NCBI GenBank assembly: GCA_965116635.1
Contig: OZ220710.1
Span: 2,010,549-2,074,548 of the forward strand
Length of the DNA stretch: 64,000 nt
Direction: 5' to 3'
From: Thermodesulfobacteriota bacterium
GTDB lineage: Bacteria; Desulfobacterota; Binatia; UBA9968; JAJDTQ01
How positions within the stretch are numbered: position 1 is the first letter of the stretch; each line of letters starts with the position of its first letter. Shown here piece after piece: positions 4,296-63,248 of the stretch. Made by a program: the position numbers and the translations under genes. The notes beneath the pieces are model-generated. The model was given only the letters and a program-made list of their open reading frames with translations. It had not been told where the DNA came from and ran no database searches.

Positions 4296-4320
4296 CAGAC
4301 TCCTCCCCGCCCCTCCTCTG

Positions 4321-5535: not shown

Positions 5536-5567
5536 GACCCTTCCATTTCCATGTACCCGTTGTTGCC

Positions 5568-5661
5568 GCCCTTCGACTCCGTTTCGCTACGCTCAGGGCA
5601 AACGCCTCGAATTCCAAAAAACCGTTCGTCCTGAGCGTAGCGAAGCGAAGTCGAAGGACGC
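5568..5661. repeat. palindromic intergenic repeat, copy A (MITE/REP-like, TIR-only form)
   Basis: Arms cccttcgactccgtttcgctacgctcagggcaaacg / ccgttcgtcctgagcgtagcgaagcgaagtcgaaggacgc are near-perfect reverse complements around a 14-nt loop. The right arm is identical to the right ends of copies at 34.3, 44.3 and 47.3 kb. Confidence 0.8.
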
Positions 5662-5664
5662 TAC

Positions 5665-6921: not shown

Positions 6922-6948
6922 AGGTCAACATTCATAGCAATTGACGCG

Positions 6949-44252: not shown

Positions 44253-44368
44253 CGCCCTTCGACTTCGCTTCGCGAAGCCTGTCCTGAGCCTTGTCGAAGG
44301 GCTCAGGACGAACGTTTAAGTCAGATTCCGTTCGCCCTGAGCGTAGCGAAGCGAAGTCGAAGGGCGCC
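44253..44368. repeat. palindromic intergenic repeat, copy C (full form: left TIR, internal hairpin, right TIR)
   Basis: cccttcgacttcgcttcgcgaagcctgtcctgagccttgtcgaagggctcaggacgaac ... ccgttcgccctgagcgtagcgaagcgaagtcgaagggcgcc. The termini are mutual reverse complements. Confidence 0.85.
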
Positions 44369-46005: not shown

Positions 46006-46030
46006 TGTGGTGTCCGCCCAGCCTACGGAT

Positions 46031-46726
46031 TTACAAGCGCCGCCAGTTCTCTTCGCCATACACGAGCCAGGCATCTACTCTCTCCCCGTCCCAACGATAA
46101 GACAGAAGACGGCTCTGAACCGGGATCCCGACTACATCCGGCCAGAATGCGGCCACGGCTTGGCCGCGGGACCAGCGAACGCTCGGATAGACGATGCCGT
46201 TGCTGGTGTGTCTTTCGCGCAGGTCCGCGGCCAACGCCTGTCCGGCGGTGTAGTCGTCGGAATTCAGCGCGGGGCGGAATTCGTCCGCACCGCGCAGGTC
46301 GTGCAGCTCCGCGTCGATGCCGCCGACGAGTTCCCGGTAGTCCGCGGTGGCCGGCTCTTCCTCCGTCGCCGCCATGAAACGCTCAAGGTGGGACACCGTC
46401 TCCGCCAGAGCCACCTCAAAGCGGTTGCCCGCGTAGTAGACACCGTAGCTGCCGTCGCCGAACCGGGTCGGACGGTCGTGCGAGGCGTGGCAGAACGGCG
46501 CCATCACACAATTGGCGCCGGGACCCGAAACCCGACGCGCTGGCGGCACCAGATGGATGGCGCCGATGTCGTCTCTGATCCTTGGATTGGTCTTGGTTTC
46601 CGCTTCCGCCAACAATTCCCAGTCCGCCGGATCAGCGATGTCGTCGAACAGGTTCACCGGGGGATAGACCGTCCGGATCAGACGGTACGCCCGCCGCCAC
46701 CGGACCCGGCTCACGGGCGAGATCAC
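46031..46726 (-). CDS. RES-domain toxin (NAD+-targeting RES family)
   Basis: 231 aa with conserved R...E...S positions (SYGVYYAGNRFEVALAETVSH ... YPSVRWSRG). Its start overlaps the upstream antitoxin stop (ATGA). Confidence 0.8.
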   Translation of the reverse strand: MISPVSRVRWRRAYRLIRTVYPPVNLFDDIADPADWELLAEAETKTNPRIRDDIGAIHLVPPARRVSGPGANCVMAPFCHASHDRPTRFGDGSYGVYYAGNRFEVALAETVSHLERFMAATEEEPATADYRELVGGIDAELHDLRGADEFRPALNSDDYTAGQALAADLRERHTSNGIVYPSVRWSRGQAVAAFWPDVVGIPVQSRLLSYRWDGERVDAWLVYGEENWRRL

Positions 46727-47142
46727 CAGCCGCCGCGCTCCGCGTCGAGATAGGCGCGCACGGCTACGAGATCGGGGATAGAGCCGGCCAGCAGCCGGTC
46801 CAGCGCCGATGCGCCGCCGAACACCTGGTTCGGCTTACGCAGCCATTCGTAGCCCCGCGACGGTTCGCGGAACAGTTGGCGCAGGTTCTTGTGAATGCCC
46901 ATCAGCATGGACAAGCGCTCGCGGGTGTCTCGGGAGATACGCGAAGGTTCCACCTGCCCGGTTTTCCAGCGCGCGTAGGTCCGGGCCGCGGGATCTCCCA
47001 CCAGAATCCGGCCTTGGCGATCGTTGAGCCGCCAGTGCTCCGCCAGATTGAAGAAGGCTCGGAGCATGGCCGTGGTCTCCGCGTCGGTTATTTCCGGCCC
47101 GACCGCCAGCACGCTGCCCGGGAAAGGAATGACGTTTGCCAT
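46723..47142 (-). CDS. Xre-like/DUF2384 antitoxin of RES-Xre pair
   Basis: 139 aa. ATG at 47142 (MANVIPFPGS...). The longer ORF-track reading (to 47331) runs into the MITE copy and is rejected. Confidence 0.7.
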   Translation of the reverse strand: MANVIPFPGSVLAVGPEITDAETTAMLRAFFNLAEHWRLNDRQGRILVGDPAARTYARWKTGQVEPSRISRDTRERLSMLMGIHKNLRQLFREPSRGYEWLRKPNQVFGGASALDRLLAGSIPDLVAVRAYLDAERGGW

Positions 47143-47233
47143 ATGGCAGTTCTTAGTTAACAGGTTGCCTTGCGTCAAAATTTGGTTCTGGCTCCGGCAC
47201 GGTCCGTTTTTCCCTGGGAACCTGTCGGATTCG

Positions 47234-47371
47234 CGCGTCCTTCGACTTCGCTTCGCGAAGCCTGTCCTGGGCCTTGTCGAAGGGCTCAGGACGAAGGTGG
47301 GTGCGAGTGTTGCGCGACATGAACTCCACAACCGTTCGTCCTGAGCGTAGCGAAGCGAAGTCGAAGGACGC
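47234..47371. repeat. palindromic intergenic repeat, copy D (full form)
   Basis: gcgtccttcgacttcgcttcgcgaagcctgtcctgggccttgtcgaagggctcaggacgaag ... ccgttcgtcctgagcgtagcgaagcgaagtcgaaggacgc. Its termini are about 95 % identical to copy C. Confidence 0.85.
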
Positions 47372-48446: not shown

Positions 48447-49466
48447 TCAGGCAACCCGTCTGGCAACGGGCTTCGACGCCTTTACAAGTGATCTCACGAC
48501 GGCCCGCATGACTGGGGGACACACTGCGTTGCCGAGCAGCTTGACACGGTCGCGCCGCGATCCATAGGGCAACACATACCGATTGTCGAATCCCATCGCC
48601 CTCTGGATCTCTGGTGGCTGTAACATTCGAAGCATTGGGGTCCCGCTTTCCCAGGTCACCAAGCCAAACCGATCGATGGTTGTAAGGGTTCGGAGAGGGA
48701 AATCAATAGACTGCCAGCCCCCGCTCCCGTCCGAACCGTAGTAGACGACCAGAAATGGTTCTCCGCGGCCTAGTTCCGATATCGCCCGCTCCGCCTTTTC
48801 GATGGTTGCGTCTGCACGTCCGGCGGCATATAGAGGCTTGGACCCCCACGGTTCAGTCCACATAATGACATCAGACCGCACCGAACGTCGCCCCCGCGTT
48901 GCGCCTTTGACGCCGGTGACAGCCTTCTCGCGGTCGCAAACCAGGAAAAGACGTCGGCGTTTCTGCGGAACCCCAAAATCCAAAGCGTCGAGTATTTGCC
49001 GAAGGACGCTGTATCCGAGGCGTTCCAGGGCCAAAACAAGTTTTTCGAAGCCATCCCAATTCCGAAGCTGGACCACGTTCTCAAGGATGATCCACCTCGG
49101 CTCCAGAGTCCTAGCGAAATCGAGCACATACCTAGCCGTTTCCCTGCTCTGTCTGTCCAGGGGCCGGTTCCCCCTCGCACAAGTGTGATTGCGGCACTCC
49201 GGCGACGCTAGAATAAGGTCAATATCTCTGACGCCGTTCAATGACGATTGACAACCCTCTTCGAGCGTCAAGTTGATGCCGACGCCCGCGCCGAAGTTTG
49301 CCTCATACGTGCTAGCCGCCACATCCCAGGCATCCACGCCGCATACAATCTTTGCCCCTGCGGCCCTAGCCCCCCAACTGCTCCCCCCACCCCCACAGAA
49401 CAGGTCCAACGTGCGCACTTTGCCGTTGACCTGTGAGCCAACTGTCTTGCGTTTTCCCCTCCTCAT
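48447..49466 (-). CDS. dcm: DNA (cytosine-5)-methyltransferase
   Basis: C5-MTase motifs I (DLFCGGGG), IV (PC-like ASPECRNHT), VI (ENV), VIII (QKRRRLF) and X (GNAV). Confidence 0.9.
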   Translation of the reverse strand: MRRGKRKTVGSQVNGKVRTLDLFCGGGGSSWGARAAGAKIVCGVDAWDVAASTYEANFGAGVGINLTLEEGCQSSLNGVRDIDLILASPECRNHTCARGNRPLDRQSRETARYVLDFARTLEPRWIILENVVQLRNWDGFEKLVLALERLGYSVLRQILDALDFGVPQKRRRLFLVCDREKAVTGVKGATRGRRSVRSDVIMWTEPWGSKPLYAAGRADATIEKAERAISELGRGEPFLVVYYGSDGSGGWQSIDFPLRTLTTIDRFGLVTWESGTPMLRMLQPPEIQRAMGFDNRYVLPYGSRRDRVKLLGNAVCPPVMRAVVRSLVKASKPVARRVA

Positions 49467-49470
49467 CGAG

Positions 49471-49908
49471 TCACTTCCTTGGCACCCTGTTGTCTCGCAA
49501 AAAAGAGACGACTTTCATCAAGCATGCCTCTGGCGATCGCACGATCTGATGCTCCCAGATTCGGACCACCTTCCACCCCATCCGCCGGAGGCGCCGGTGA
49601 TTTCGCATATCGCGACGACGAGTAGCATCAATCTTGGCCTCCCACTTGTCCGAGAGCTTGTCCCGCCACCGTGGGAAACGCCATCCGTGCCAAAAGTCGC
49701 CATCTACGAAGACGGTTACACGCTGGTTCCGAAAGACAAAGTCCGGACGTCCCGGCAGATCCCGAACATGGCTCTCCCAGGCAAGGCCCGCTGACGAAAA
49801 AACCTCGGCCATGGCCCTCTCCGGACCCGTGTCGCGACCTCTGATACGCGACATGACCAAGCTTCTGGTTTCCGGTGACATGATGTCACCGCGGTGGCGC
49901 TCACCCAT
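49471..49908 (-). CDS. vsr: very-short-patch repair endonuclease
   Basis: MSPETRSLVMSRIRGRDTGPE...FVDGDFWHG is a canonical Vsr. It lies 4 nt upstream of dcm. Confidence 0.85.
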   Translation of the reverse strand: MGERHRGDIMSPETRSLVMSRIRGRDTGPERAMAEVFSSAGLAWESHVRDLPGRPDFVFRNQRVTVFVDGDFWHGWRFPRWRDKLSDKWEAKIDATRRRDMRNHRRLRRMGWKVVRIWEHQIVRSPEACLMKVVSFLRDNRVPRK

Positions 49909-51730
49909 CGCGTCCGGCCTGACCCCGCGTGCTTTGTTTGCCTCCGGTGAGCTCCGGGATGCGCGGGACCGTTTCCAGATAGGTCTCAGCCCGAATTTCC
50001 TGCCAACACTCCGCCTTCTTCGCCCACTCGGAGACCATTCGTCCTTTGGCCGTGCGGTTCAGAACCTCATTGACCTTCTCTGCCCACTTGGCAATCTGCG
50101 TGGCCAGGGGCTGTGATGTCTCCTGTTGCACCCACACCCTGTCGAGGTCGAGCCTGGATCCGATGCGTGCCGCAACGATCGACACCGTATACGTGGCGAT
50201 ATTGGCCTGAAAGGCGGGGAACATGCGACGCGCCAGTTTCTGTGTCATCCTGTACACAATCGCCTTCGCAATCATCTGCTTGAAACCTGTCACATCCGGT
50301 ACAAACGCTCTCAGGTCACCGTCGGCATCGTTGAGCCGATCCATGAGCGTGGCGAAATTCTTTTGTGCCCCGAAACTTACCGCATCTGGCATTTGATCCC
50401 ATGCGTTGAGATATTTGGCCAAGTCGGTCTTCGTGATCTTCCGGGCGGGTGGAATAGCCTGCTTCAGTTTGCGAAGTTGCGCCGGCGTTGTCCCTTCGCG
50501 GGCGAGCATCGTCTTGTAGCTACCGGCCGCACGCTCGTAGAACCATCGACCCACACCGTCGGGACAGTAGGTCGTCAACGCGAGACTCTCCACCCTCCTG
50601 TGAAAGGCCGCATTCGCAGACAAATCAGACTGTCGTATCGAGTTCTGGCTGTTTGCGTACTTCGAGATATTGGCAACAAGCGCTTCTTCCGCACCTGTAT
50701 CAGCCGACTTCAATAGGATGATCTTCACCGGAACTCGCACACGACGAAGGTCTACCTCCGTGTTTCTCTTCTTGCTGAAATAGAGCGAGGCCGTTGTCTG
50801 GCCGCCATTCACAATCTGCATACCCTTCAGCCAGGAGATGCCTGGTCCACCATCCGCAGTGTGTCCGAGTCTGACCTCGTCGGCAATCACGACGATTCCA
50901 TTGTTGTAGGCCATGAAACGTTCCGGAACCTCGCGGAGTGTGTCGCGTATCCCCTTGTTGACCTTTCCTGTCATGCTGAGAAATGAACGGACGTTGGCCT
51001 CCAGCAGACGATCGCCGTACTTCTCGTAAACGAAACGAAGGGCCTCGCCGGGCATAGCTGTCATGGCATAGTCGTAGTCGGTCGCCTCGCCGGGAACATA
51101 GACGCATGGAAGTGGCCCACCCGCAACCGCCTCAAAGTCGACAGTCAGTTCATCACGTGGTTTCCCTTCGGCCCAGTGACGATACAGTCGTTCGATGTCC
51201 ATGACTTCGAGCTTGATTGTTTTTCCACTGACCTCTCTGGCCTTGAAGTTCTTCGACTTCGCCTTCCTGTCGGTGAGGACGTAAATCCTGATCTGATCAA
51301 GTCGATGGTAAGAATCATGGATGTTCGTCACAAGACCATAGGCGTCGTTCGACGGTTCCATTGAAGCGCCAAGGCTCCCTTGTGCAGCTTTCGCCAGAAA
51401 ACGGAGACACTGTTCGGCAGCCATCTTTGTCATCGAATCCGGGATGGAAGCAATCTCGTCAACACCACCGTAAAGACTGACGAACAGGTCGAGTTGGTCC
51501 GCATCGTCGGAAATTGCATATCCACTGAGGCGCAATCTTGCGTTTCCGATACTCGCCATGTAGTGACAGACTTCCGGATCATCGAACGTCATGCCGATTT
51601 CCGACATGTGATCCATGACTACCTCGGCGAATACCGACTCGGGATAGGGGTAGGGGCTGCCTATCTCGACGGTCTGAATCTGTGAGCGGACATCCGCCTG
51701 TGTTTGCCTCAGAAATTCTTCGAGGTCCAT
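49901..51730 (-). CDS. AIPR (abortive-infection phage-resistance) family protein
   Basis: 609 aa with a conserved core around MQIVNGGQTTASL, as in AIPR proteins that occur in dcm-linked Z1/HATPase cassettes. Confidence 0.7.
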   Translation of the reverse strand: MDLEEFLRQTQADVRSQIQTVEIGSPYPYPESVFAEVVMDHMSEIGMTFDDPEVCHYMASIGNARLRLSGYAISDDADQLDLFVSLYGGVDEIASIPDSMTKMAAEQCLRFLAKAAQGSLGASMEPSNDAYGLVTNIHDSYHRLDQIRIYVLTDRKAKSKNFKAREVSGKTIKLEVMDIERLYRHWAEGKPRDELTVDFEAVAGGPLPCVYVPGEATDYDYAMTAMPGEALRFVYEKYGDRLLEANVRSFLSMTGKVNKGIRDTLREVPERFMAYNNGIVVIADEVRLGHTADGGPGISWLKGMQIVNGGQTTASLYFSKKRNTEVDLRRVRVPVKIILLKSADTGAEEALVANISKYANSQNSIRQSDLSANAAFHRRVESLALTTYCPDGVGRWFYERAAGSYKTMLAREGTTPAQLRKLKQAIPPARKITKTDLAKYLNAWDQMPDAVSFGAQKNFATLMDRLNDADGDLRAFVPDVTGFKQMIAKAIVYRMTQKLARRMFPAFQANIATYTVSIVAARIGSRLDLDRVWVQQETSQPLATQIAKWAEKVNEVLNRTAKGRMVSEWAKKAECWQEIRAETYLETVPRIPELTGGKQSTRGQAGRDG

Positions 51731-51733
51731 CTT

Positions 51734-52744
51734 TCAGATCACCTGCAGTTTCGCGAGTGCGTCCTTTAATTCGATTCTCGGCTCTTGAACCATCTCGAGG
51801 TCGAGTTCGTAACGCGCGGTGCGAATAGCCCGGGCGATATTGGCGTGGCTTAGTTTCGGAAAACCCGCATGGACGCTGAAGATTGCCGTACTGCCGTACC
51901 GAAATCTCCGTCGGTACCGGTTCGAGAGATCCACCAGAAAGCCGGCCTGGAGGACAAGATCCTCGAAACTCCCCAGCAATGCGGGATCGTCACGCAAGAG
52001 GTCGCCAATAACGCCAACCAGTGCTGGCAGCGTCCTACCTGACGCATCGAGAACCAGCTGAACTCCCACGAGAAAAAGCCATTGGACCAGCGACTCGTCG
52101 AGTTGCTCCAAGGATCCCACAACCGCAGGAAACTCCCCGGAAGCCACGCTCGCCTTTACCTCCATTGCGCCGTTTCCCAGCACGAAATCATGAAGTCCAT
52201 CAACCGGACCGCGCCAACCATCAACGGCGACGGACGCGGGCACTCCGTTTTCCAGGAGTTGCTGCAGGAACGAAAGCTCGCCGACCAACCCCACTTCCGC
52301 CGCTGGACCGAGAACCTCGTCCCGACCTCGATCCATGAATGACTGCCATGCCCGAATTCTCGCGGTGAACCGCCGCACCAGATCCACATCACCGCCGGCG
52401 TGATCGGATAGGACATCTATGACATCTTCGGCCATTCTCGCGAAGATTTCACGACTGCCGGCGGACTCCCTAACGAGAGCCACCCAAGTCCGAGCATCTC
52501 CAGGCATCTCATCGAAGTCCACCTCGACACGGAATCCCCGGCCACGGGGTAATGTGTTGGCATCGACCGCGGTTCCGCCCGGGACAAAACCGATAAGAAG
52601 AGCCTCCTCGCCACCCACAAAATGACGCCCTGCGAGAATACGACATGGCCCTGCTGGCTCGACTGGTATGGTACGCCACCCTTCACCAGCAAGACTGTCC
52701 CCCAGTGCCCGCCACGCCGCTTGAAGGTCAGTCCGCGGAGCCAT
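51734..52744 (-). CDS. PD-(D/E)xK-motif protein (putative nuclease) of the Z1/AIPR cassette
   Basis: About 336 aa. Candidate motif ...GELSFLQQL...HDFVLGNGAMEVKAS (D...E-V-K). Start taken at MAPRTD (52744), overlapping the Z1 stop. Confidence 0.5.
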   Translation of the reverse strand: MAPRTDLQAAWRALGDSLAGEGWRTIPVEPAGPCRILAGRHFVGGEEALLIGFVPGGTAVDANTLPRGRGFRVEVDFDEMPGDARTWVALVRESAGSREIFARMAEDVIDVLSDHAGGDVDLVRRFTARIRAWQSFMDRGRDEVLGPAAEVGLVGELSFLQQLLENGVPASVAVDGWRGPVDGLHDFVLGNGAMEVKASVASGEFPAVVGSLEQLDESLVQWLFLVGVQLVLDASGRTLPALVGVIGDLLRDDPALLGSFEDLVLQAGFLVDLSNRYRRRFRYGSTAIFSVHAGFPKLSHANIARAIRTARYELDLEMVQEPRIELKDALAKLQVI

Positions 52745-55562
52745 ACTCCTGCTCCCACAACACATTGTTGACCTTGTATTCGACTTTCTCGTCCCGCCTG
52801 CTGTCCGGAAAGCTGATCGCGAAGGCTGTGATCGCAGGGTCGCCGTGAGCAAACCCCGCATCGGCTTTCTGCGGGTCAAGCACATACAGAAAAAACAAAC
52901 CACAGTCGGGGTGGCTGGGCACACCCGGCGCACCCAAACCCCTGACCCTCCTCACTGCCTTCCCGGCAGGCGTATTCGGTAGCGGCGAGTCACTTGGTGC
53001 AGCCCATCCATGGGTGATATCCAGCGCAACCTTCCACTCCGCCTCATTGAGGTCGATGGCCTCGTCCCTGGGCGACATGAGTCTGCCGATGGAGTAACGG
53101 TTGCCGCTAGTGCTCTTTGCTGTTCGCTTCAACATGCTCACTTTGACGTCATTGCGGAGATCAACCTCGGCGCCCTCGCCACCGCCTATCAATGCCACGG
53201 TCCATCGGGTTAACTCGCCGTGTTGAAGCATCTTCTGAACGAATTCGGAAAGCAACAGGCTGTTGACCTTGTGAGCGTCCGGGTGCGTTCTGTAGCCCGC
53301 CAGGAAGTCCAACACGTACGACGCGGGGACATCCTGCCAGAGCCAGCTTCCCGTCCACTGCTCGCGCCGCCCGCCACGGTTTCGTTCCGGATCGGCTTCC
53401 GGCTTTCCTAGTGCGGAGATCAGACCCCTTGTTACCGACAAGTTTCCTTCAAGTTCCTCTCTGGTTCGGTATAGCGCGACGGTCTCCAAGAGTGTTCCAC
53501 TAAAAGAAAGCAGCAGGTTCCTTGCCGTCCTCATCTTCAGTCTTGACGTCACCATCAAGACCGGATGCGACTGCACCTTGAGGCCGAAGTCGCGAGGTGT
53601 CGCTCCGCTTGCGACCATATCGTCAAACTCCTGGCGAACCTCATCGGCCGCATCGGTGATGTGTCTGAACCACTCCGACAAGTCCTGGGTGGTGTAGAGT
53701 CTGCAAAGATCCAGATAGCCCGGGCGGTAGCCGAACCACCGACCCATTTGCATCAACGTGTCATACATTCTGGAGGCCCGAAGAAAGTAGCTTACGCACA
53801 GCCCCTCGAGAGTCAGGCCCCTGGATAGTTTGTCGCCTCCAATGGCAATCACGGTGAGGCCGGTGTTCTCGTGCTCCGCGTAATCTAGCGCGTCTTTTGC
53901 AGTGCCGTTGATCGTCCTCACCTGCACATCAGAAACCACGTCGGGAAGAACCGGCTCAATGTCCACCCAGCTAATGTCGTTCCCAGGAACGATCTCAGGC
54001 TCACTGTGGCGTACGTGACCGGTAGTCTCAACGAAGTCCTGCTCCCACAACGACCGCAGGCCGCCCAGGATGCCTTTCGTATCGACCTGTCGGGTCAACC
54101 GTTGTCGGACGAACCGCACACGATTCTCCACCTGCCGATGGACCTCGGCTTGAACTGACGTGAAGCGGGTCACGTGTATGAGCATTGACGAGTGCCTCTT
54201 CGTCTGGCCCCGCAACCTGCGGGCCGCGCAGGCCAACAGAAACGCGTCGACCGCTTCATTGAGGGAGGGGGGCAGGACGTCCTCTCCCTGAAACCGCGGC
54301 ATGTGACCATTCTTGTGCTGGATCGGCATCCAACTCGACGTGGTATCGTCGTCGACAATCCGCAGGAGAGTCGGACCTTGGCCATCGCTGTCCTCGGTTT
54401 CTCCGGGGCCACCGAATATCTTCGCGGACCCGACGTAGTTCGATGGCGCAGCAAGGCTGACGATGAACGCGGACGGAAACAAGTCTGGCCCCTCGCGTTT
54501 GGTCTCTCCTCGTTCATGGATGAAGATATTGGCGAAGGGCGTGGCTGTATAACCGACATATGCCGACCGCGCAAACGCGTGCAAGATGGCCCGTATGAGA
54601 CGATTGATAGCTGTGGGTTGGTGTTCGTCGTCGGGTTGACCGCTTGAATCCACAACCTGCTCGCCGGTATCTACGCTCGCGTGGTCGGCCTCATCGTCGA
54701 TCACAAGGAGCGGAAGACCGGTGACGACCCGTCTGTCACTTTCAGAATCGTAGTGGTCCGCCACGTGATTCCTGATCCATCGAAACAGCCGCTCAAGAAC
54801 GGTCTTGTTCTTCTTGACTACGAACAGCCACGGTCTTTGCTCCGGTGAGATCCCTAGATTCTTTGCAACCTTCGCTGTGAAATCACCGCCATTAGTGCGA
54901 TTCGTCGCAAAATTCGGGCGGATTGACAGGTCAGTATCAATGGTTCCCACGCCAATAGCCTGTATATCTTGCTCATTCGGTTTGGTCTCGTAACCAAGAA
55001 AACCTTCGTCCAACCGCATCTGCGTCTGTGATCGTAGGTTGTTGTGAAGGCCCGCAACAACAATCACGATCTTGTAGCCGGCGTCGGCCGCCTTGCACAA
55101 CAGTCCAGTGTAGTGGCCGGTCTTGCCCGACTGTATCTGCCCGACGACAAGGCCGCGCCTGTCCCAGCTTCCGTTCCTGTCGGGATCCTCCAGGAGACCG
55201 AGAACCGTGTCCGTCGATTGATCCATGGCATCAATCGCCTTGGCGGCCAGCATTCCATCAAGCCATTGCCGATAGCGAGGCCAGTATCGCCAGTCCTTCT
55301 TGCGGGAGGACACCAACCATGCCTCGTGCCCCGTGTCGTTTGTCAGGATGGCATCCTTGCCGATCCAAAGACTGAATCGACGAATCATTTCGTCTATGAT
55401 TGACTCTCGGCCAATCATATCCGGTTCGATGTCGAACTGGGGTCCCAGCCCCAACAACCAGTCCAACTTCTCGGCTATGACCGTCGGCGTGATCTGACGC
55501 TTACCGAGTTCCGCTTCAAGAAATACCTGCAACAACCTGATGACCTGCTCCTCCGCTGCCAT
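52728..55562 (-). CDS. Z1-domain protein (P-loop NTPase)
   Basis: 944 aa with Walker A GQIQSGKT and Walker B-like LLVIDDEADHAS, as in the Z1 domain. Confidence 0.75.
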   Translation of the reverse strand: MAAEEQVIRLLQVFLEAELGKRQITPTVIAEKLDWLLGLGPQFDIEPDMIGRESIIDEMIRRFSLWIGKDAILTNDTGHEAWLVSSRKKDWRYWPRYRQWLDGMLAAKAIDAMDQSTDTVLGLLEDPDRNGSWDRRGLVVGQIQSGKTGHYTGLLCKAADAGYKIVIVVAGLHNNLRSQTQMRLDEGFLGYETKPNEQDIQAIGVGTIDTDLSIRPNFATNRTNGGDFTAKVAKNLGISPEQRPWLFVVKKNKTVLERLFRWIRNHVADHYDSESDRRVVTGLPLLVIDDEADHASVDTGEQVVDSSGQPDDEHQPTAINRLIRAILHAFARSAYVGYTATPFANIFIHERGETKREGPDLFPSAFIVSLAAPSNYVGSAKIFGGPGETEDSDGQGPTLLRIVDDDTTSSWMPIQHKNGHMPRFQGEDVLPPSLNEAVDAFLLACAARRLRGQTKRHSSMLIHVTRFTSVQAEVHRQVENRVRFVRQRLTRQVDTKGILGGLRSLWEQDFVETTGHVRHSEPEIVPGNDISWVDIEPVLPDVVSDVQVRTINGTAKDALDYAEHENTGLTVIAIGGDKLSRGLTLEGLCVSYFLRASRMYDTLMQMGRWFGYRPGYLDLCRLYTTQDLSEWFRHITDAADEVRQEFDDMVASGATPRDFGLKVQSHPVLMVTSRLKMRTARNLLLSFSGTLLETVALYRTREELEGNLSVTRGLISALGKPEADPERNRGGRREQWTGSWLWQDVPASYVLDFLAGYRTHPDAHKVNSLLLSEFVQKMLQHGELTRWTVALIGGGEGAEVDLRNDVKVSMLKRTAKSTSGNRYSIGRLMSPRDEAIDLNEAEWKVALDITHGWAAPSDSPLPNTPAGKAVRRVRGLGAPGVPSHPDCGLFFLYVLDPQKADAGFAHGDPAITAFAISFPDSRRDEKVEYKVNNVLWEQEYGSAD

Positions 55563-55565
55563 TCT

Positions 55566-57068
55566 TCAAATCCCCCAAGGCTCTGCGTCCGCCGTTAGCG
55601 ACGCGATCAACTCTGGATAGTTGTGAAAAGGCTCGGTACGAAGGATCTGCTCACGCGCCAAGTCCGGTGAAAGGGACTGTCTATCGACAAGGTCTCTGAA
55701 TAAGACTTCCGCCACGCCCTTCACGTCTTCCGGCAAAGTACCAGAAAACCCCGTACGCGGTGTCTCCCTGCCCTCGGCGGTGTCCAACCATATACGTTGT
55801 ACCGGGACAGTCTCCTCAAGGATGCGGATCATGGCCTTGATTTTCGGTGCGATCGCACCCCCGGCGTCCAGGACGGCCTTGACTGCCGGATGCGACATGT
55901 CAACCCGGTAGCGCATCCCATCGTTGAGATGTTCAGCACGCCACGCATGAACTACTGGACTGCGCCCGGCAGGTACCACGACGTGCCCACGATGGGCGAA
56001 GACACTACGCGCCCGCATACAAGTGTCCTCCATGAGGTGCGTCAGGTTTACGCGGAGAGCCACCGGCGGTAACGCGGTCGACTTGCGGATGTCGATCTTC
56101 CAATCAGCGTCAGCAGTATTCGGAATGTCGAGTCGGATCCGTGCCAACCGGTGCGCCTCTTCCTTTGTCCAGGAACGTCCCCGTCCAAGACCAAGCCAGC
56201 TCCCGGCTACGAGCAGCCTTTCTTTCCTGTAAACGTAGAAACCTTGTTGCGCCGTCCAACCATCGGGCCCGCCTGCCCGTTCGTGTTGGTTGCGGTCCAA
56301 GCGGTCCTTGTGGGGCAGCACATGACACTGCGCTCTGATGCCGGGCGCAAGCGTCGCCTCAGGCGACGACCATGTGGCAGGGTGGTTTGCAAGAAAAGGA
56401 TCCCACATCGCAACCTCCCTACGATTGATGGTAATACGGAGCCGTTGGCTTGGTCCGGTGAGGTATCTGTGGAAAACCATCCCCAGGTGGCGGTCCACTA
56501 CGTCGATAAGGTCAAGAAAACTCTGCTCCGAAAAGCCGGGCGTCACGATGCGATCGAGGTTCTCCCAAAGGACCAGTGTGCCTTGTTGAACCGGCAACAG
56601 CGAACCCAGTAGGTCTTGTGATCCTTCCGCCGGCCCTTCCATCAGACGCCATTCGTCGTCGGGGCTGCGAGCCAACACATCGAGATCCCAACGAAGACAA
56701 CCGAGTTGGCCACAACTCCTGCTGGCGACCGTAACCCGACGGCACTGTGAGAACGACGCCGTCTTCAAACCAAGGCCGAAACGGCCCAGGTCGCTGTCTG
56801 CTCTCACATCAAGTGGACTTTGCTGCCCCAGCCTCATGGCACGATCAAGTTCACCTTCGTCCATACCCCAACCGTCATCCTGGATCGCGATGTAGCTGCC
56901 AGTTCCTTGCCAGACGAAACTCAGGTCAACATAGCGGGCGCCTGCGGCGATACTGTTGTCTACGATGTCGGCAATGGCCGTCGCAGTCGAGTAGCCGAGC
57001 CCGCGTAGGGCTTCTATCATTGCCGTCGCCTTGGGCGGCGCATGGCGGTATTTCACCGAACTCTTCAT
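55566..57068 (-). CDS. GHKL-type ATPase (HATPase_c_3, MutL/MORC-like)
   Basis: Bergerat-fold motifs AIADIVDNSIAAGA (N box) and DDGWGM (G1). The start may be the internal MIEALRG (57020) rather than 57068. Confidence 0.75.
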   Translation of the reverse strand: MKSSVKYRHAPPKATAMIEALRGLGYSTATAIADIVDNSIAAGARYVDLSFVWQGTGSYIAIQDDGWGMDEGELDRAMRLGQQSPLDVRADSDLGRFGLGLKTASFSQCRRVTVASRSCGQLGCLRWDLDVLARSPDDEWRLMEGPAEGSQDLLGSLLPVQQGTLVLWENLDRIVTPGFSEQSFLDLIDVVDRHLGMVFHRYLTGPSQRLRITINRREVAMWDPFLANHPATWSSPEATLAPGIRAQCHVLPHKDRLDRNQHERAGGPDGWTAQQGFYVYRKERLLVAGSWLGLGRGRSWTKEEAHRLARIRLDIPNTADADWKIDIRKSTALPPVALRVNLTHLMEDTCMRARSVFAHRGHVVVPAGRSPVVHAWRAEHLNDGMRYRVDMSHPAVKAVLDAGGAIAPKIKAMIRILEETVPVQRIWLDTAEGRETPRTGFSGTLPEDVKGVAEVLFRDLVDRQSLSPDLAREQILRTEPFHNYPELIASLTADAEPWGI

Positions 57069-59122
57069 GACACTCGTTTCCCGCCTGTTCCGTATCGGGT
57101 GGATAGAACTCTATGGAGTGTCTTAAGGGCAGCCACTTCAATCTGTCTCACCCGTTCACGCGTCAGATTCAGCTTGTCTCCCACTTGTTGCAGCGTGTGA
57201 TCAGGTCCACCGCCAAGACCGAACCGAAAGCGGATCACATAAGCCTGCCTCTCCGTGAGAAACCGCAACGCAAAGTCAATATCGTGCCGTATTGCAAAGC
57301 GCGAAGCGAAGTCGGCTTCGGCGGTCAAAGGGGTGTCCATGGCCGGCGACCAGTCAACGACATTCTCTACCAACTCCGCGTCTTGCCGGAGGAGAAGTGT
57401 CTTCTCCAACTCGCGACCTGAAACACCAAACTCACTGGCCAGTTCACTTGCGTCCGGAGGCCGCCCAGTCAGAGCAGAAGCCGCGCCAGCAGCTCTCTGG
57501 ACCTTGGCCAAGCGCTCCACAGCGTGAACCGGCAGGCGGATAATCCGTCCCTGGTCTGCGACGGCACGCGAGATGGCTTGGCGAATCCACCAAGTGGCAT
57601 AAGTCGAGAACCTGAAGCCCAGACGGGGATCGAAACGTTCCACTGCCTTCAACAGTCCAATGCTCCCTTCCTGAACACGATCCATCAGAGGGAGGCCTCC
57701 CTGTCGCTTTGCACACCACAGGACAAGACGAAGATTGGCTTCAACAAACTCCGCGCTGGCTTTCTCTCTCGCCCGCAAAGCTGATGTCAAAATGCGGTTC
57801 AACTCAGGGTTCGACGCATTCTCAGTCACTGTGGCACAAAGGTGTCGAATCGCGACACCAGAGAGGCGCAACGCGCTCAGCCCATCTCTGAAGGTGTCCG
57901 CCCGATGGGTGTCCCGAGCGCCTAGTGAACTTCCATTCATCAGGTGACGAATTGCCTGCGAGCCAGTCAGATTATGTGACATGGATGGCGTCAAGCTCGG
58001 CCGGTCCGAATCCTGGCCTTCACCGGAATCAAACTCCTCATCTCCGCCGGAGTCGTCGGTCGATAACTCAGGGTCTGTCTCGATGCTATTCTCTAGTTGA
58101 TCCACCCATTCGAACAACTGGTGCGAGGCCTCTGTTGACTGCGAAATTGCGCGGAACACCTCGTCGGTCGCGTCCTCAATTCGAGTCGCCAACGCTACCT
58201 CTTCGTCTGCAGAAAGGCGTCGGGCACCATTGAGGTCTTTTGAATAGGGGATGAGGAGATCCTGGTTGCGTGACAGATCGCCAAGGAACGCGATGGCGTC
58301 TTGCACCATCTCCTCGTCTGAATCGTCAAGGATCACATCGCTTTGCGGCCATGCTATGCTGGCAGATACCGGAGCACCCGGATCATCCTCCACGAGAATC
58401 CCTATAGCTTCCATCATGACCCGGAGGCGGCTCTCCGTGCCGATGTCGTACTGGTCGTCTTCTCCATTCCACGCCAACTCTGCAACTTCGTAGGCCGTCA
58501 CCCAGCCACATGACAGCCCCGCGCGGATCAGCGTACGCACGTCATCAAGCCAAGCGGCGTCGCCCGTAGCGTACCAATCAGTGTCGTCCGGCAGATCAAC
58601 CTCAACGTCGGACCAATCGTCATCCTGATTTGTCGGCACGTGTTTGGAAATCTGGTCCTGAAGTTCGCGGACACTCGAATAGACAGACGGATCGTCTACC
58701 GGTGGCGACGAGTCCGCAACTTCTTCCCAGTCTGCAAGATCGAGAGATTCCTCATCCCAGACCCGCTCGACGTCAGCAACACCTGCAAACGGGTCGTCCA
58801 CCACGACTGAACTTGCGCTTTCCGCGGACTCGGACGGACGACAGGCGCGCAGCACAGCTGCCGCGTCTTCCTGTCGCTCCTTGATGGCGACGGACAACGC
58901 GTCATTGCCTTCCCAATCGACCAGCGAGGGATCTGCGCCAGCCTTGATGAGTAGTTGGCAGACTTCGAAATGTCCTCCCGCTGCCGCTAGCAGGAGTGGC
59001 GTCCGACCTCTCGAATCCCGTGCATTGACGTCGTCGCCCCGGCGGATGTGGAATTCCACCGTCTGGACCACGCCGTCGCTCGCGGCCCAACGAAACAACG
59101 ACGGCAAACGATGGCTTGGCAT
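57065..59122 (-). CDS. RpoD-like sigma-70 factor with N-terminal ankyrin-repeat module
   Basis: 685 aa. Residues ~20-95 are ankyrin repeats (GRTPLLLAAAGGHFEVCQLLIKAGADP). This is followed by an acidic region 1.1-like stretch, region 1.2 (DLLIPYSKDLNGARRLSADEEVALATRIED), region 2 (LRLVLWCAKR...FSTYATWWIRQAISRAVADQGRIIRLPVH), region 3 and region 4.2 (TLQQVGDKLNLTRERVRQIEVAALKTL). The stop overlaps the GHKL start (ATGA). Confidence 0.8.
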   Translation of the reverse strand: MPSHRLPSLFRWAASDGVVQTVEFHIRRGDDVNARDSRGRTPLLLAAAGGHFEVCQLLIKAGADPSLVDWEGNDALSVAIKERQEDAAAVLRACRPSESAESASSVVVDDPFAGVADVERVWDEESLDLADWEEVADSSPPVDDPSVYSSVRELQDQISKHVPTNQDDDWSDVEVDLPDDTDWYATGDAAWLDDVRTLIRAGLSCGWVTAYEVAELAWNGEDDQYDIGTESRLRVMMEAIGILVEDDPGAPVSASIAWPQSDVILDDSDEEMVQDAIAFLGDLSRNQDLLIPYSKDLNGARRLSADEEVALATRIEDATDEVFRAISQSTEASHQLFEWVDQLENSIETDPELSTDDSGGDEEFDSGEGQDSDRPSLTPSMSHNLTGSQAIRHLMNGSSLGARDTHRADTFRDGLSALRLSGVAIRHLCATVTENASNPELNRILTSALRAREKASAEFVEANLRLVLWCAKRQGGLPLMDRVQEGSIGLLKAVERFDPRLGFRFSTYATWWIRQAISRAVADQGRIIRLPVHAVERLAKVQRAAGAASALTGRPPDASELASEFGVSGRELEKTLLLRQDAELVENVVDWSPAMDTPLTAEADFASRFAIRHDIDFALRFLTERQAYVIRFRFGLGGGPDHTLQQVGDKLNLTRERVRQIEVAALKTLHRVLSTRYGTGGKRVS

Positions 59123-59364
59123 CAGCGATTCATCCCAAACGGCTGTCCCGGTCTACCGTTAGAGGCTCACGTACCTGCAACCACCCTCTATTGAGGCAAC
59201 TGAGACAGGACCATCGGAAGATATTCGGCACTGAAGAGTCTGTATAGGCCGCCACCGTCGGCAGAGCGGTATGCGATTGGGGAAGCGACAGATGGGAAGT
59301 TTATCGTTTTGGAAAAACAGCATGCGCGAGCAGGTCCAAGTACCTCCAACTCCGCAACTCACTT

Positions 59365-60012
59365 TTACGACCAGCTATCCTGGTACACCCAGCGGTCGAG
59401 ATTGTCGAAGAATTGGCGCCGCAGCATGAGGCTCATCTCCACGGCGCGCACGATGCGGTCCTGGGTCTCGGGGTCGGTGGCATACTTGACCAGCAACTCG
59501 AAGGGATAGTTGCCGTGCTCTTCCTCGTCGTCGTGGATCTTCTGGTAGGGGCCGGTGACCCACTCGGGCACGGTGCCGGCCTGGAGGCTCTTGCCGATGA
59601 GGTAGTCGGCCACGCCCTCGCCGGCGAAGGGAAACGCGGCAATGCGCTCACAGGTGCTGGTCAGCGCCTCGAAGCCGTTGAACATTGCCATCTGCGCGGG
59701 TAACGGCTTGTAGTCGTAGGGCACGGCTCCCTTGCTTTTCAGGGCTTCGGAAAGATACTCGGCGTGGACGAATTCTTCGTAAATGGCTTCCGCCAGAATC
59801 GCCTTGACCTCCAGCTCGGGGGTGGTCTTGAGCCACGTGCCGAAGACCTCGGCGGCGCGCACCTCGTTGAAGAGCCGGCTCTGCATCACCTTGATGCGCA
59901 TCTCGTCGGTGGTGAGCGGGATGTAGCTGTAGGCGGGCAGGTTGTCGTCGAGGCCCTTGCAGAACTCGGCCACCCGCGACTGTACCTTCTTGGCAAACTC
60001 GTGACTGTCCAT
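59365..60012 (-). CDS. ferritin-like di-iron domain protein
   Basis: About 215 aa with paired ExxH motifs (EEFVH, EEEHG) in a helical context. ATG at 60012. Confidence 0.5.
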   Translation of the reverse strand: MDSHEFAKKVQSRVAEFCKGLDDNLPAYSYIPLTTDEMRIKVMQSRLFNEVRAAEVFGTWLKTTPELEVKAILAEAIYEEFVHAEYLSEALKSKGAVPYDYKPLPAQMAMFNGFEALTSTCERIAAFPFAGEGVADYLIGKSLQAGTVPEWVTGPYQKIHDDEEEHGNYPFELLVKYATDPETQDRIVRAVEMSLMLRRQFFDNLDRWVYQDSWS

Positions 60013-60146
60013 GAATGCTCCCTGTCCGGAACGCTCCGGCTCGGTTTGGTTGCCGGAAATTGATAACAACCGTTGCCGGCAGCGTCAACCAAACATCGTG
60101 ACGGCAGCTTCCGGGACAGGGGCCGCGGCGTTCTTCCGGGGTCCGG

Positions 60147-61208
60147 CTATTTTTTCATGCCCAGGAACTTCCTGTATTGGTCCACGATCTCCGGCGGAGC
60201 CCCGGTCATGAGCCCGATGATACGGGCGACCTCCTTCCCCGAGCGCGGGGCGACCCTGATGCCCTGGCGTTTGGCTTCGCTGATGAACTTGGGGCTGGCC
60301 AAGGCCTTGAGGAAGGCTTCCTGCAGGACGTTGAATCGATCCGGCGGCGTTCCCGGCGGAATCGCGTACAGCCGGAGGATGCTCCAGCTCTGGATCAGGA
60401 AATCGGCGAGCTTTCGCTGGTCGGAGCTGAGGGTCAGGTCCTTCAGGGTTGCCACTCCGGCCGGCGCTTCCGCCCCCGGCCCGGTCCCGATGGCCAGGAA
60501 CGGCCGGAGCGTGCCGTTCTCGATCAGGTGGCCGTAACGGTCCTGAACGAAATGGAGGGACAGGTTCATGCCCTCCAGCTCTTTCCGTTCCAGCGCCGCC
60601 AGGATGCCGGTGGAGCCCTTGTAACCGAAGACCACCTTGACGTTGAGGCCGAGAGTACGCTCGAACTCACCCATGATGGCGGCGGACTGGCCCACGCCGG
60701 TTGCCCCCACGGCGAGGGGCTCTTTCCTTTTCTTCAGGTCCGCGAGCGTGCGGATCGGCAGGTCGCCCCGCACCCACAGCACCCTTGGCAGGGCCGGAAG
60801 CGAGGGATCGCCCAACCACATGTATTTCATCGGGTCGAACTTGACCGCGGGATCCCCCATCAAGGCCTGCAGGACGATTCCGGTGGCGAAGTTGACGATG
60901 GTGAGCCCGTCTCCCGGTTGTTCCGCGTAGATCCTGTTGGCCGCTACCAGGCTGCCGGCGCCCGGCATGTTCTGCACGATGAACCTGGGATTGCCCGGTA
61001 TGTACTGCGGCAGATGCCGCGCCAGCATGCGCGCGAAGGTGTCGAAACCGCCCCCCGGGCTGAGGCCGACGATGATCTTGACGGTCTTGCCTTCGTAGAA
61101 CGGGGCCGTGGCCCCTTGTGCCGTTGTCCCGAGGTGAAGCCCGATGCAGAGGACGGCGGCAAGAGTGAAGAGGGCTATCCTGGTGAGTGCTCCGGACTGG
61201 CGGTTCAT
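60147..61208 (-). CDS. tripartite tricarboxylate transporter substrate-binding protein (TctC/Bug family)
   Basis: Signal peptide and Bug-family core (KIIVGLSPGGGFDTFARMLA..., GYKGSTGILAAL). ATG at 61208 with GGAGG upstream. Confidence 0.8.
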   Translation of the reverse strand: MNRQSGALTRIALFTLAAVLCIGLHLGTTAQGATAPFYEGKTVKIIVGLSPGGGFDTFARMLARHLPQYIPGNPRFIVQNMPGAGSLVAANRIYAEQPGDGLTIVNFATGIVLQALMGDPAVKFDPMKYMWLGDPSLPALPRVLWVRGDLPIRTLADLKKRKEPLAVGATGVGQSAAIMGEFERTLGLNVKVVFGYKGSTGILAALERKELEGMNLSLHFVQDRYGHLIENGTLRPFLAIGTGPGAEAPAGVATLKDLTLSSDQRKLADFLIQSWSILRLYAIPPGTPPDRFNVLQEAFLKALASPKFISEAKRQGIRVAPRSGKEVARIIGLMTGAPPEIVDQYRKFLGMKK

Positions 61209-61390
61209 ACACACCTCCCTTGGCGCATGTTCGAATAACGCGGAACCCGTTGAATTTCCGGACACTACGATGGGGCCGGAAACATTGTCAACCGCATAGC
61301 ATGCGGCACCGGCGGTTGTTCAGGCACCGTCCGTCGATGGGATTTCCACTCTGTTGACACGCCTGAACGGTTCGCAGTAAGGGAGTTGCC

Positions 61391-62059
61391 ATGGCAAACG
61401 AAGCCTTCGTCGACGCCATCACCAGCGAGATCATCGAGCCCGGCATCCAGCAGTTGATGGAAAATCGCTACTTCTCCGAGCTGAGAGAAGGGCAACTCTC
61501 GGTGCGGAGACTCCAGGGGTGGTCGCTGCAGCACTACCTGCACAACGTTGTCCTGTTGAAGGGCTTTGCCCTCTGCATGGTGAAAAACGCCCATGACAAC
61601 CGGCTCTACAATCACTTTGCCTACCAGTTCGAAGAAGAGAGCACGCATCCCGACCTGGCCAAACGTTTCGGCTTGGCCCTGGGGCTCGGCGAAGAGGACT
61701 TCGCCGATGCCACGCCGGTCTTCGGCTGCCTGGTCCACACGAGCCGGATGATCCACGGCATGCTGTTGGGCTCACCCGCGGAAAACCGGGTGGGCGCCCT
61801 GGTCGACGAGAGCATGGTCCGGCGCTACTCGGAGGAGTTCAATCGCTACGCGCGGAAGCACTACGGCCTCGGCGACGAAGCCTGTGAGTTTTTCACGGTC
61901 CACATGGTGGCGGATGAGGAGCACACCGCCATGGCCTCCGAAGTGATCGCCCGCATGGCCGAGACGCCTCGGGAACAGCAGTTGGTACGCGAAGCCGCGC
62001 GGCACACGGTGCGCCTGAAACTCGGCAAGTTCGACAGCATCTACGAAAGCTATGCGTAG
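61391..62059 (+). CDS. TenA/PqqC-like (haem-oxygenase-fold) iron-containing redox enzyme family protein
   Basis: 222 aa all-helical protein with conserved acidic/His positions (EEESTHPDL, DEEHT). Confidence 0.5.
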   Translation: MANEAFVDAITSEIIEPGIQQLMENRYFSELREGQLSVRRLQGWSLQHYLHNVVLLKGFALCMVKNAHDNRLYNHFAYQFEEESTHPDLAKRFGLALGLGEEDFADATPVFGCLVHTSRMIHGMLLGSPAENRVGALVDESMVRRYSEEFNRYARKHYGLGDEACEFFTVHMVADEEHTAMASEVIARMAETPREQQLVREAARHTVRLKLGKFDSIYESYA

Positions 62060-62088
62060 GCGCACCCGCCGCCTCGGAATGGGGACCG

Positions 62089-63216
62089 ATGAAGATATAC
62101 AACTTCGACCTTCTCGCCTATCCGCACGTGCCCATGGACATCCCGGGCACGCCCCTGCCCAGCAACCTGTTCGATCCGGCCGAAGGCACTCGCAACTACG
62201 AGGACCATTTCTACGAAATGGAACATTGCGAACAGCTCGGCTTTGAGGGGGTCCTCTTCAACGAACACCACTACAGCGCCTATGGCACCATGCCGTCGCC
62301 CAACCTGGTCGCCGCCGCGCTGAGCCAGAGGACCAGTACGATCAAGATCGGCGTGCTCGGCAACGTCCTGCCGCTCCGTCACCACCCGGTGCGGGTGGCG
62401 GAAGAATACGCCATGGTCGACTGCATGTCGGGAGGACGGCTGATCGCGGGCTTCGTGCGCGGCATCCCTCCCGAATACCTCTGGTACAACATCGATCCGA
62501 GCGAATCGCGCGGGCGGTTCGAAGAGGCCTTCGAGCTGATCCTGAGGGCGTGGACCGAACCCACCTGGAGCTACCACGGCAAGTTCTTCCAGCTCGAAAA
62601 CTGCGCCACCTGGCCGCGCCCGGTCCAGCAGCCCCATCCTCCGGTGTGGGTCGCCGCCCGCAGCGCCGAGTCCGTCGAGTGGTGCGCCGAGCGCCGTATC
62701 CCCATCGCCCAGGTGTACCAGACCACCAGCCAGATCGAGGATACCTTCAACTACTATCGCAAGGTAGCCCGGGACGGGGGTTGGGAAGCCGACGACGGGC
62801 AGTTCGTTCTGTGCCGGCACATCTACGTTGACGAAACGGACGAAAAGGCGCGCGAGGTTGCCGAGCCCGCGCTGCGCTACTTCTTCACGCTCCTGAACCG
62901 CGGGTTCAAGCAGACGGCCAGCGAGGCGGGCGCGCGCGTGAGGGAGGCCCTCTACACCGACAAGTCGTTCAACTACTTCCGCGAGGAGAACCGCCAGCGG
63001 TACGACTTCTCGTCGCTCGGCTGGGAGGACCTGCAGAAGGTCGGATACGTCTTTGCCGGAAGCCCGGACACGGTCGCCCGGCAACTCAACCAACAGATGA
63101 GCGATGTGGGCGCCGATCACTTCATGGGAATGTTCCACATCGGCAACCTTCCTCACGACAAGGTCATGGATTCCCTGAACCTCTTCCACAAGCAGGTCAT
63201 GCCGCAGTTGAAGTGA
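62089..63216 (+). CDS. LLM-class flavin-dependent oxidoreductase
   Basis: 375 aa with luciferase-like TIM-barrel motifs (FNEHHYS, PHPPVWVAA). Confidence 0.8.
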   Translation: MKIYNFDLLAYPHVPMDIPGTPLPSNLFDPAEGTRNYEDHFYEMEHCEQLGFEGVLFNEHHYSAYGTMPSPNLVAAALSQRTSTIKIGVLGNVLPLRHHPVRVAEEYAMVDCMSGGRLIAGFVRGIPPEYLWYNIDPSESRGRFEEAFELILRAWTEPTWSYHGKFFQLENCATWPRPVQQPHPPVWVAARSAESVEWCAERRIPIAQVYQTTSQIEDTFNYYRKVARDGGWEADDGQFVLCRHIYVDETDEKAREVAEPALRYFFTLLNRGFKQTASEAGARVREALYTDKSFNYFREENRQRYDFSSLGWEDLQKVGYVFAGSPDTVARQLNQQMSDVGADHFMGMFHIGNLPHDKVMDSLNLFHKQVMPQLK

Positions 63217-63248
63217 CGGACACGGGTCCGACCGCAGGGAGACTTCGA

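Follow-up and report, generated by a model that had tools for sequence, protein, structure and literature searches.

The DNA analysed here is a 64,000-nt stretch of contig OZ220710.1 from a Thermodesulfobacteriota bacterium (positions 2,010,549 to 2,074,548), and the whole stretch is referred to below as the window. Our subject is a gene pair in it, vsr-dcm, which codes for a putative very-short-patch-repair-type mismatch endonuclease (Vsr) and a putative C5-cytosine DNA methyltransferase (MTase). The pair lies at the end of a cassette whose other five genes code for an MzaABCDE (MZA) defence system. A check of the open reading frames (ORFs) of the window showed that two minus-strand ORFs fill positions 48447-49908 exactly, and Pfam matches confirmed the two families named for them in a preliminary description that had been made from the letters alone. 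The 4-nt spacer given there was also found (CTCG, 49467-49470). The same description had the MTase followed by Vsr. This order had to be reversed because both genes lie on the minus strand: vsr (49908-49471, 145 aa) is transcribed first and dcm (49466-48447, 339 aa) second.

The cassette spans 10.7 kb (48447-59122) and consists of seven minus-strand genes in the order mzaA-B-C-D-E-vsr-dcm. Its genes and the features discussed below are as follows.

mzaA, 57065..59122, minus strand: opens the cassette; ankyrin repeats and a sigma-70-like domain (Pfam Ank_2, Sigma70_r2, Sigma70_r4)
mzaB, 55566..57068, minus strand: GHKL (MutL/paraMORC-like) ATPase (Pfam HATPase_c_3, 2.6e-29)
mzaC, 52728..55562, minus strand: Z1-domain protein (Pfam Z1, 2.4e-85)
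mzaD, 51734..52744, minus strand: DUF4420 PD-(D/E)XK nuclease (Pfam DUF4420, 4.2e-64)
mzaE, 49901..51730, minus strand: AIPR-family protein (Pfam AIPR_N and AIPR)
vsr, 49471..49908, minus strand: T:G mismatch endonuclease, very-short-patch-repair type, zinc-less clade
T6 homopolymer in vsr, 49797..49802, minus strand: codons 35-37
Vsr active-site and wedge motif FVDGDFWHGW, 49681..49710, minus strand: without the Cys/His zinc ligands of E. coli FTHGCFWHHHHC
dcm, 48447..49466, minus strand: C5-cytosine DNA methyltransferase ('SPEC' subfamily), closing the operon
Methylase motif IV ASPECRNHT, 49182..49208, minus strand: catalytic Cys91, with Glu90 replacing the usual Pro

The start of mzaD was set from homologues at ATG 52744, while the longest ORF would begin at GTG 52933; on identical contigs a 336-aa gene is called for mzaD. 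The intergenic distances for mzaA/B, B/C, C/D and D/E are -4, 3, -17 and 3 nt. The start of vsr lies over the stop of mzaE in an 8-nt overlap (ATGGGTGA). This packing, together with a cassette-like GC content at third codon positions (GC3), bears out the earlier view of the pair as the last genes of the island operon. The GC content of the cassette is 0.578, and GC3 is 0.60-0.69 across the seven genes (0.67 for vsr, 0.64 for dcm) versus 0.83-0.88 in the flanking host genes. Because the low values are common to all seven genes, we concluded that the segment 48447-59122 was acquired horizontally as one unit. No second C5-MTase or second Vsr is encoded elsewhere in the window. Pattern scans for promoters and terminators, which are uninformative for this GC-rich organism, picked up less than the shuffled controls did and no terminator within the operon.

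The upstream genes, described previously as a nuclease-like module, could be identified as the nuclease-containing defence system MzaABCDE. Over its full length, each of the five matches its Mza model in both PADLOC and NCBIfam, and they stand in the canonical order on one strand. The PADLOC E-values were 1.9e-64 (MzaA), 1e-196 (MzaB), 0 (MzaC), 2.1e-44 (MzaD) and 1.1e-241 (MzaE), and those of NCBIfam were 2.5e-125 (MzaA), 1.5e-235 (MzaB) and 4.8e-295 (MzaE). Because all five bit scores fall below the NCBIfam equivalog cut-offs (420 against 800 for A, 782 against 850 for B, 1291 against 1500 for C, 301 against 420 for D, and 980 against 1050 for E), the Mza genes of the window represent a divergent MZA lineage rather than a different family. 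The closest MzaE among the GTDB species representatives, with 79% identity, comes from a Vicinamibacterales metagenome-assembled genome. MZA has been validated experimentally as anti-phage; the system is credited to Gao and colleagues (Science, 2020; cited in PMC10855318), reportedly with phage resistance for enteric homologues.

The Vsr and methylase subfamilies

The product of vsr matched Pfam Vsr (PF03852) at 8e-23, with 80.5 bits against a cut-off of 27, and the E. coli Vsr structure 1CW0 at 8.7e-18. Its AlphaFold model (mean predicted local distance difference test score, pLDDT, of 81.8) gave significant matches in the PDB only to 1CW0 and 1VSR, the best being 1CW0 (probability 1.00, template modelling score 0.67, E 2.5e-7). 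In E. coli numbering, the protein keeps the catalytic Asp51 and His69 and the DNA-intercalating Phe67, Trp68, Trp86, Met14 and Ile17, all of which are invariant in its clade. The enzyme had been called a canonical Vsr. It keeps the fold and the catalytic and wedge residues, yet none of the four zinc ligands known from E. coli remains (D stands for C66, a gap for H71, W for C73 and H for C117), and the score on TIGR00632 is 97.6 bits against a cut-off of 97.85. In addition, H64 of the E. coli enzyme is D in the window Vsr. Of the 120 nearest cluster representatives, 117 have the zinc-less form ('FVDGDFWHGW...WEH'), as do 10 of the 58 Vsr proteins linked to MZA, and this form is a large conserved clade. 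The C-terminal half of the protein also matches the restriction endonuclease-type families MTES_1575 and DUF559.

The product of dcm matched Pfam DNA_methylase (PF00145) at 5.3e-37 (128.4 bits, cut-off 22) and TIGR00675 dcm with 111 bits (cut-off 100.65). Its score on NF007772, the model for the Dcm subfamily of E. coli, was only 19 bits. The best PADLOC match was the DISARM DrmMII model PDLC02654, at 1.1e-86 and over the full length. Alignment to HhaI showed that motifs I (DLFCGGGG), VI (ILENV), VIII (QKRRRLF), IX (RMLQPPEIQRAMGF) and X (GNAV) are intact. In motif IV, ASPECRNHT stands where HhaI has GFPCQAFS; Cys91 aligns with Cys81 of HhaI, and the Pro before it is replaced by Glu. The preliminary description of a canonical C5-MTase with motifs I, IV, VI, VIII and X is therefore correct for I, VI, VIII, X and the catalytic Cys, and not for the Pro of motif IV. 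The 'SPEC' sequence is invariant in the 120 closest database cluster representatives and in all ~330-aa methylases of MZA loci. Because of this invariance, we regard SPEC as a conserved feature of the subfamily and not a sign of decay.

The ratio of nonsynonymous to synonymous substitution rates (dN/dS) was ~0.06-0.11 for vsr and dcm, and ~0.07 for the methylase, as measured against orthologues at 66-82% identity with dS near saturation. Both genes are under strong purifying selection, which argues against a decayed decoy.

The target site of the methylase was sought in the 64-kb window by Markov-corrected over- and under-representation of palindromes, for both the host part and the island; this gave generic signals only, none of them attributable to the enzyme. 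In the palindrome scan CTAG and GTAC were low and CAGCTG was absent. As a separate observation, the host part (1-48446 and 59123-64000) has 0 CAGCTG sites against 14 expected and 94 GTAC sites against 149 expected, a scarcity that other restriction systems of this lineage may have left behind. A deamination footprint was also looked for among the 19 single-nucleotide differences between the window and its sister contigs across the island and dhdps, and these had no common motif.

MZA loci in other species and in sister strains

One genome per GTDB species was scanned with MzaE, and 80 loci were kept. The Mza genes were located by tblastn, and C5-methylases and Vsr by iterated profile searches (hidden Markov models) of all ORFs. 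Complete loci were defined as those with colinear mzaA-E (n = 59, species-level), and linkage as a distance within 4.5 kb. A C5-MTase was found within this distance in 56/59 complete loci. Both MTase and Vsr were present at 47 of them, MTase only at 9, Vsr only at 2 and neither at 1; at one of the two Vsr-only loci an MTase lies 5 kb further on.

The methylase-Vsr pair occurs in 13 arrangements, upstream of mzaA or downstream of mzaE and on either strand, and the arrangement of the window (vsr then dcm, downstream of mzaE) was found at 13 loci. The MTases fall into two unrelated classes: one of ~520 aa, with GGPPCQ and a zinc-type Vsr, and one of ~330 aa, of the SPEC type, mostly with a zinc-less Vsr. 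In 44 of the 47 pairs the two genes lie within ~100 nt of each other. Fusions of zinc-less Vsr to a SPEC-type methylase, with one common linker, were found in four clusters (P0052, P0087, P0097 and P0119), and P0063 is an independent fusion with a zinc-type Vsr. The P0097 fusion comes from a low-coverage contig with many split genes; the fusions were kept because there are four clusters and an independent fifth. The adjacency and the fusions tie Vsr to the methylase rather than to Mza. The linkage itself has been kept through rearrangement (13 arrangements) and through replacement of the module (two classes), and for this reason we consider it functional. Taken as comparative evidence, it argues for a C5-methylase, usually with its Vsr, being functionally required at MZA loci.

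At six MZA loci a nuclease of the AspBHI/MspJI family (RE_AspBHI_N and Mrr_cat), dependent on 5-methylcytosine (5mC), lies between mzaE and the methylase:

L013 11266-12426; L020 12295-13440; L024 10391-11548
L037 10243-11376; L088 12804-13973; L092 8849-10029

At L013, L037 and L092, vsr stands between this nuclease and the methylase.

Several candidates from the survey were rejected. The long-class MZA methylases are not orthologues of E. coli Dcm (44-60 bits against a cut-off of 710), and no CCWGG specificity was inferred for them. The vsr of L089, for which a gene call is missing, is not a pseudogene, since translation gives an intact ORF. An insertion at the 3' end of vsr with an odd C-terminus (P0122) proved to be Illumina adapter sequence, translated where a JGI contig ends (L093 4203-4273). 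Two loci look damaged: in L028 the mzaB-mzaC region holds ~2.7 kb of DNA without a match (4307-7067), and in L089 mzaA is cut to its ankyrin part of 328 aa, without the sigma domain (1375-2361).

In E. coli, mzaE is annotated in 52/5426 complete genomes. The inspected islands read DUF262 - PD-(D/E)XK (PDDEXK_4) - Mrr-like restriction endonuclease (Mrr_cat) - mzaABCDE - yecA. E. coli mzaABCDE restricts T4(C), with unmodified cytosine, and T4(hmC), with hydroxymethylcytosine (hmC), 10^3-10^4-fold, it restricts glucosyl-hmC T4 much less than hmC T4, and it shows no abortive-infection phenotype (bioRxiv 10.1101/2022.06.16.496414). In vitro, E. coli MzaD cuts all three T4 DNAs, and phage resistance is known for the enteric MZA homologues only (same source).

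Closer to the window, nine metagenome sister contigs (L081-L086, L094, L099 and L100; 99-99.9% identity; from at least 3 projects) carry a T5 homopolymer in vsr where the window has T6. Apart from the window, the intact T6 allele was seen only in L093, an independent contig. In the sister contigs the Dcm protein is identical to that of the window, with two synonymous changes in its gene. A scan of metagenome contigs for the T5 and T6 alleles of vsr gave no matches, though the search pattern matches the known loci.

The neighbourhood below the cassette differs between strains. Below 47445 there are ~57 differences per kb, versus ~1-3 per kb in the cassette, and this much higher divergence suggests recombination below 47445. 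This part of the window codes, on the minus strand, for a toxin with a RES domain (46031-46726) and for an antitoxin of the Xre/MbcA/ParS type (46723-47331); this toxin-antitoxin pair is 1.1 kb from the cassette, beyond a DHDPS-family gene. The sister contigs have an extra 1.4-kb gene (AAA_14 and DUF4143, 426 aa; L081 10207-11588) that is absent from the window at 46015-46024. A 60-nt stretch at 44253-44312 also matches the sister-contig counterpart of the intergenic region by the Xre antitoxin gene (L081 8939-8998), as a short repeat with two copies in the neighbourhood.

Role of the vsr-dcm pair

We favour, with a probability of about 0.6, a model in which the cassette acts like a restriction-modification (R-M) system: the methylase would mark host DNA, Mza would spare the marked DNA, and Vsr would repair the deamination of 5mC. 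The C5-methyltransferase would first methylate its target sequence on the host chromosome. In the second step 5mC would keep the Mza nuclease machinery (MzaD, MzaB, MzaC and MzaE) off self DNA, and unmethylated incoming phage DNA would be cut by it. In the third step Vsr would nick 5' of the T in T:G mismatches that arise by 5mC deamination, and short-patch repair would restore C:G. Two parts of this model, the activity of the methylase in this host and the protection of self from Mza by methylation, are what we infer. The preliminary description had already proposed that modification protects self. The presence of an MTase at nearly all complete MZA loci is as this proposal predicts, while the five-gene loci of E. 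coli speak against it.

These loci belong to several observations that weigh against the R-M-like model. No methylase or Vsr was found beside MZA in the two E. coli islands inspected (L087 AR_0085 and L091 13P484A), and derivatives of E. coli K-12 tolerate the five-gene mzaABCDE, which is active in them (bioRxiv 10.1101/2022.06.16.496414). Because the five-gene loci work without a linked methylase, a need for cognate methylation is not demonstrated; in E. coli, either methylation is unneeded for self-protection or the host Dcm suffices. In our search we found no biochemically characterised enzyme with Glu before the catalytic Cys, and the change from Pro to Glu is unusual. For M.MspJI, whose locus shares its order of restriction endonuclease, Vsr and Dcm with several MZA loci, expression in E. 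coli gave no methyltransferase activity (PMC2938202). In the nine sister contigs the T5 allele frameshifts vsr and leaves a 63-aa product. All those that reach far enough upstream (seven of the nine) end at an IS3-type transposase (HTH_Tnp_1) in mzaB, at ~55961. The cassette is decaying in most sampled strains, and vsr is therefore dispensable beside an intact dcm in the sister-strain population. It had been argued earlier that Vsr is retained only where 5mC deamination is a real burden, and that this argues for an active methylase rather than a decoy. The first argument is weakened because vsr is frameshifted beside an identical Dcm. As to the second, the low dN/dS opposes a decayed decoy, and the part that relied on the retention of Vsr has lost force.

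The strongest competing explanation, which we consider unlikely but worth serious attention, is that vsr-dcm is a self-contained module that co-travels with MZA and has no role in telling self from non-self, Mza using some other cue. The E. coli loci without a linked methylase or Vsr fit it well, as do the sufficiency of five genes for defence without toxicity in E. coli (bioRxiv 10.1101/2022.06.16.496414) and the definition of MZA by five genes only in PADLOC and NCBIfam. The sister strains fit it too: intact dcm beside the IS-disrupted mzaB means that dcm is maintained, or not yet lost, without a working Mza. The linkage across species and phyla, in 13 arrangements and with two MTase classes, is hard to obtain by chance. 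In the window, moreover, vsr overlaps mzaE by 8 nt, and the base composition of vsr-dcm equals that of the mza genes.

It is less probable still that the SPEC methylase is inactive or repurposed, binding DNA or S-adenosylmethionine and depositing no 5mC on the chromosome. It might then be a regulator, a sensor subunit of Mza, or an enzyme active only with Mza partners, and Vsr would be no evidence of genomic 5mC. The Glu in place of the otherwise invariant Pro of motif IV points in this direction, as does the lack of detectable activity of M.MspJI, whose locus has the order REase-Vsr-Dcm, REase being the restriction endonuclease (PMC2938202). So do the frameshifted vsr of the sister strains and the six loci at which a 5mC-dependent nuclease adjoins vsr-dcm, an arrangement that would be self-destructive were the methylase to make the substrate of the nuclease. 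On the other hand, the catalytic Cys, ENV, QxRxR, FxGxG and GN are invariant across the subfamily, and dN/dS is ~0.07. The dedicated, co-evolving Vsr clade, even fused to the methylase, would have no obvious purpose without 5mC deamination. The match to the DISARM DrmMII model (1.1e-86) also opposes inactivity.

Two further explanations are very improbable. The type-IV-like alternative of the preliminary description, in which Mza is directed against modified DNA from outside and disregards the pattern written by the linked methylase, could draw on the AspBHI-like, Mrr_cat and DUF262 genes that neighbour some MZA loci and on the weaker restriction of glucosyl-hmC T4, by which the modification state of cytosine matters; it is largely refuted, since E. 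coli mzaABCDE restricts unmodified-C T4 as strongly as hmC T4 and MzaD cuts all three DNAs (bioRxiv 10.1101/2022.06.16.496414), and a modification-dependent system needs no almost obligatory linked methylase. A role of the Vsr-like protein as an effector nuclease in defence, and not as a repair enzyme, is suggested by the loss of the zinc site, by the matches of its C-terminal half to MTES_1575 and DUF559, and by the listing of Vsr-superfamily endonucleases among the nuclease components of related operons by Iyer et al. 2008 (PMC2292703), but the protein adjoins the methylase and no fixed Mza gene in 44/47 loci and is sometimes fused to the methylase, its Vsr-specific N-terminal helix (M14, I17) and wedge (F67, W68, W86) are invariant, and its absence from ~15% of the loci that keep the MTase, as well as the frameshift in the sister strains, marks it as accessory, like a repair gene.

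Under the R-M-like model, one may speculate that native MZA is a seven-gene, 5mC-based system, and that the five-gene definition omits the methylase and Vsr because the tested enteric versions lack them; we hold this broader claim only tentatively and regard it as doubtful. The enteric MZA would then possibly lean on the core Dcm-Vsr of the host, and host Dcm is a possible confound in the published E. coli MZA experiments. As judged from sequence, the module of the window would be one of two interchangeable ones, made of a co-evolving pair of zinc-less Vsr and SPEC methylase that is sometimes fused. MZA outside the enterobacteria almost always comes with a C5-methylase, and usually with Vsr too, which suggests a testable hypothesis of how the system distinguishes self from phage. 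Both clades, that of the SPEC methylase and that of the zinc-less Vsr, are large and would be easy targets for biochemistry. For the window, the practical result is its annotation as a mobile MZA cassette with a modification and repair module.

Comparison with known systems

The five upstream genes of the cassette have the same families as MZA in the same order: sigma-70/ankyrin, GHKL ATPase, Z1, DUF4420 nuclease and AIPR. As defined and tested (PADLOC, NCBIfam), MZA has five genes, whereas the window, like most non-enteric species, has vsr and dcm attached to them. In its best PADLOC match, DrmMII of class 2 DISARM, the methylase shows relatedness at the level of the subfamily and not membership in the system; no other DISARM genes are present with it. 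In DISARM, as reportedly described by Ofir and colleagues in 2018, the mark of self, for a multi-gene helicase/nuclease defence, is set on DNA by a C5-MTase.

The E. coli Dcm-Vsr pair resembles that of the window in that the C5-MTase and Vsr genes are tightly coupled in one transcription unit and that the fold and the catalytic and wedge residues of Vsr are shared. It differs in the order of the genes, which is reversed in the window with vsr first, and in the zinc site (Cys66, His71, Cys73 and Cys117), which the window Vsr lacks. The window methylase also differs from E. coli Dcm, having 339 aa and SPEC, as reflected in its 19 bits on NF007772. The order vsr-then-dcm is that of the MspJI - V.MspJIP - M.MspJIP locus described by Zheng et al. 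2010 (PMC2938202), and no MspJI-family gene was found in the 64-kb window.

Iyer, Abhiman and Aravind 2008 (PMC2292703) described operons of a GHKL (MORC/paraMORC) ATPase, an SF2-like helicase, AIPR, a nuclease of the restriction endonuclease fold, DCM and VSR as R-M systems, and the cassette resembles them in gene neighbourhood. That work was purely comparative; it did not separate the MTase and Vsr classes, and it did not note the zinc-less Vsr or SPEC. Payne et al. 2021 make no mention of Mza. For Z1/PD-(D/E)XK systems that are related to mzaABCDE, Miller et al. 2022 (PMC9523054) list a cytosine methyltransferase among the core genes. Those systems are only ~20% identical to MzaBCDE, whereas the Mza genes of the window are bona fide. 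The association of MZA-type genes with Dcm and Vsr is already known from these papers of 2008 (PMC2292703), 2010 (PMC2938202) and 2022 (PMC9523054). To them our survey makes modest additions: the linkage is quantified, two classes of the module are separated, the SPEC motif and the zinc-less Vsr clade are described, and the decay of the cassette in sister strains is documented.

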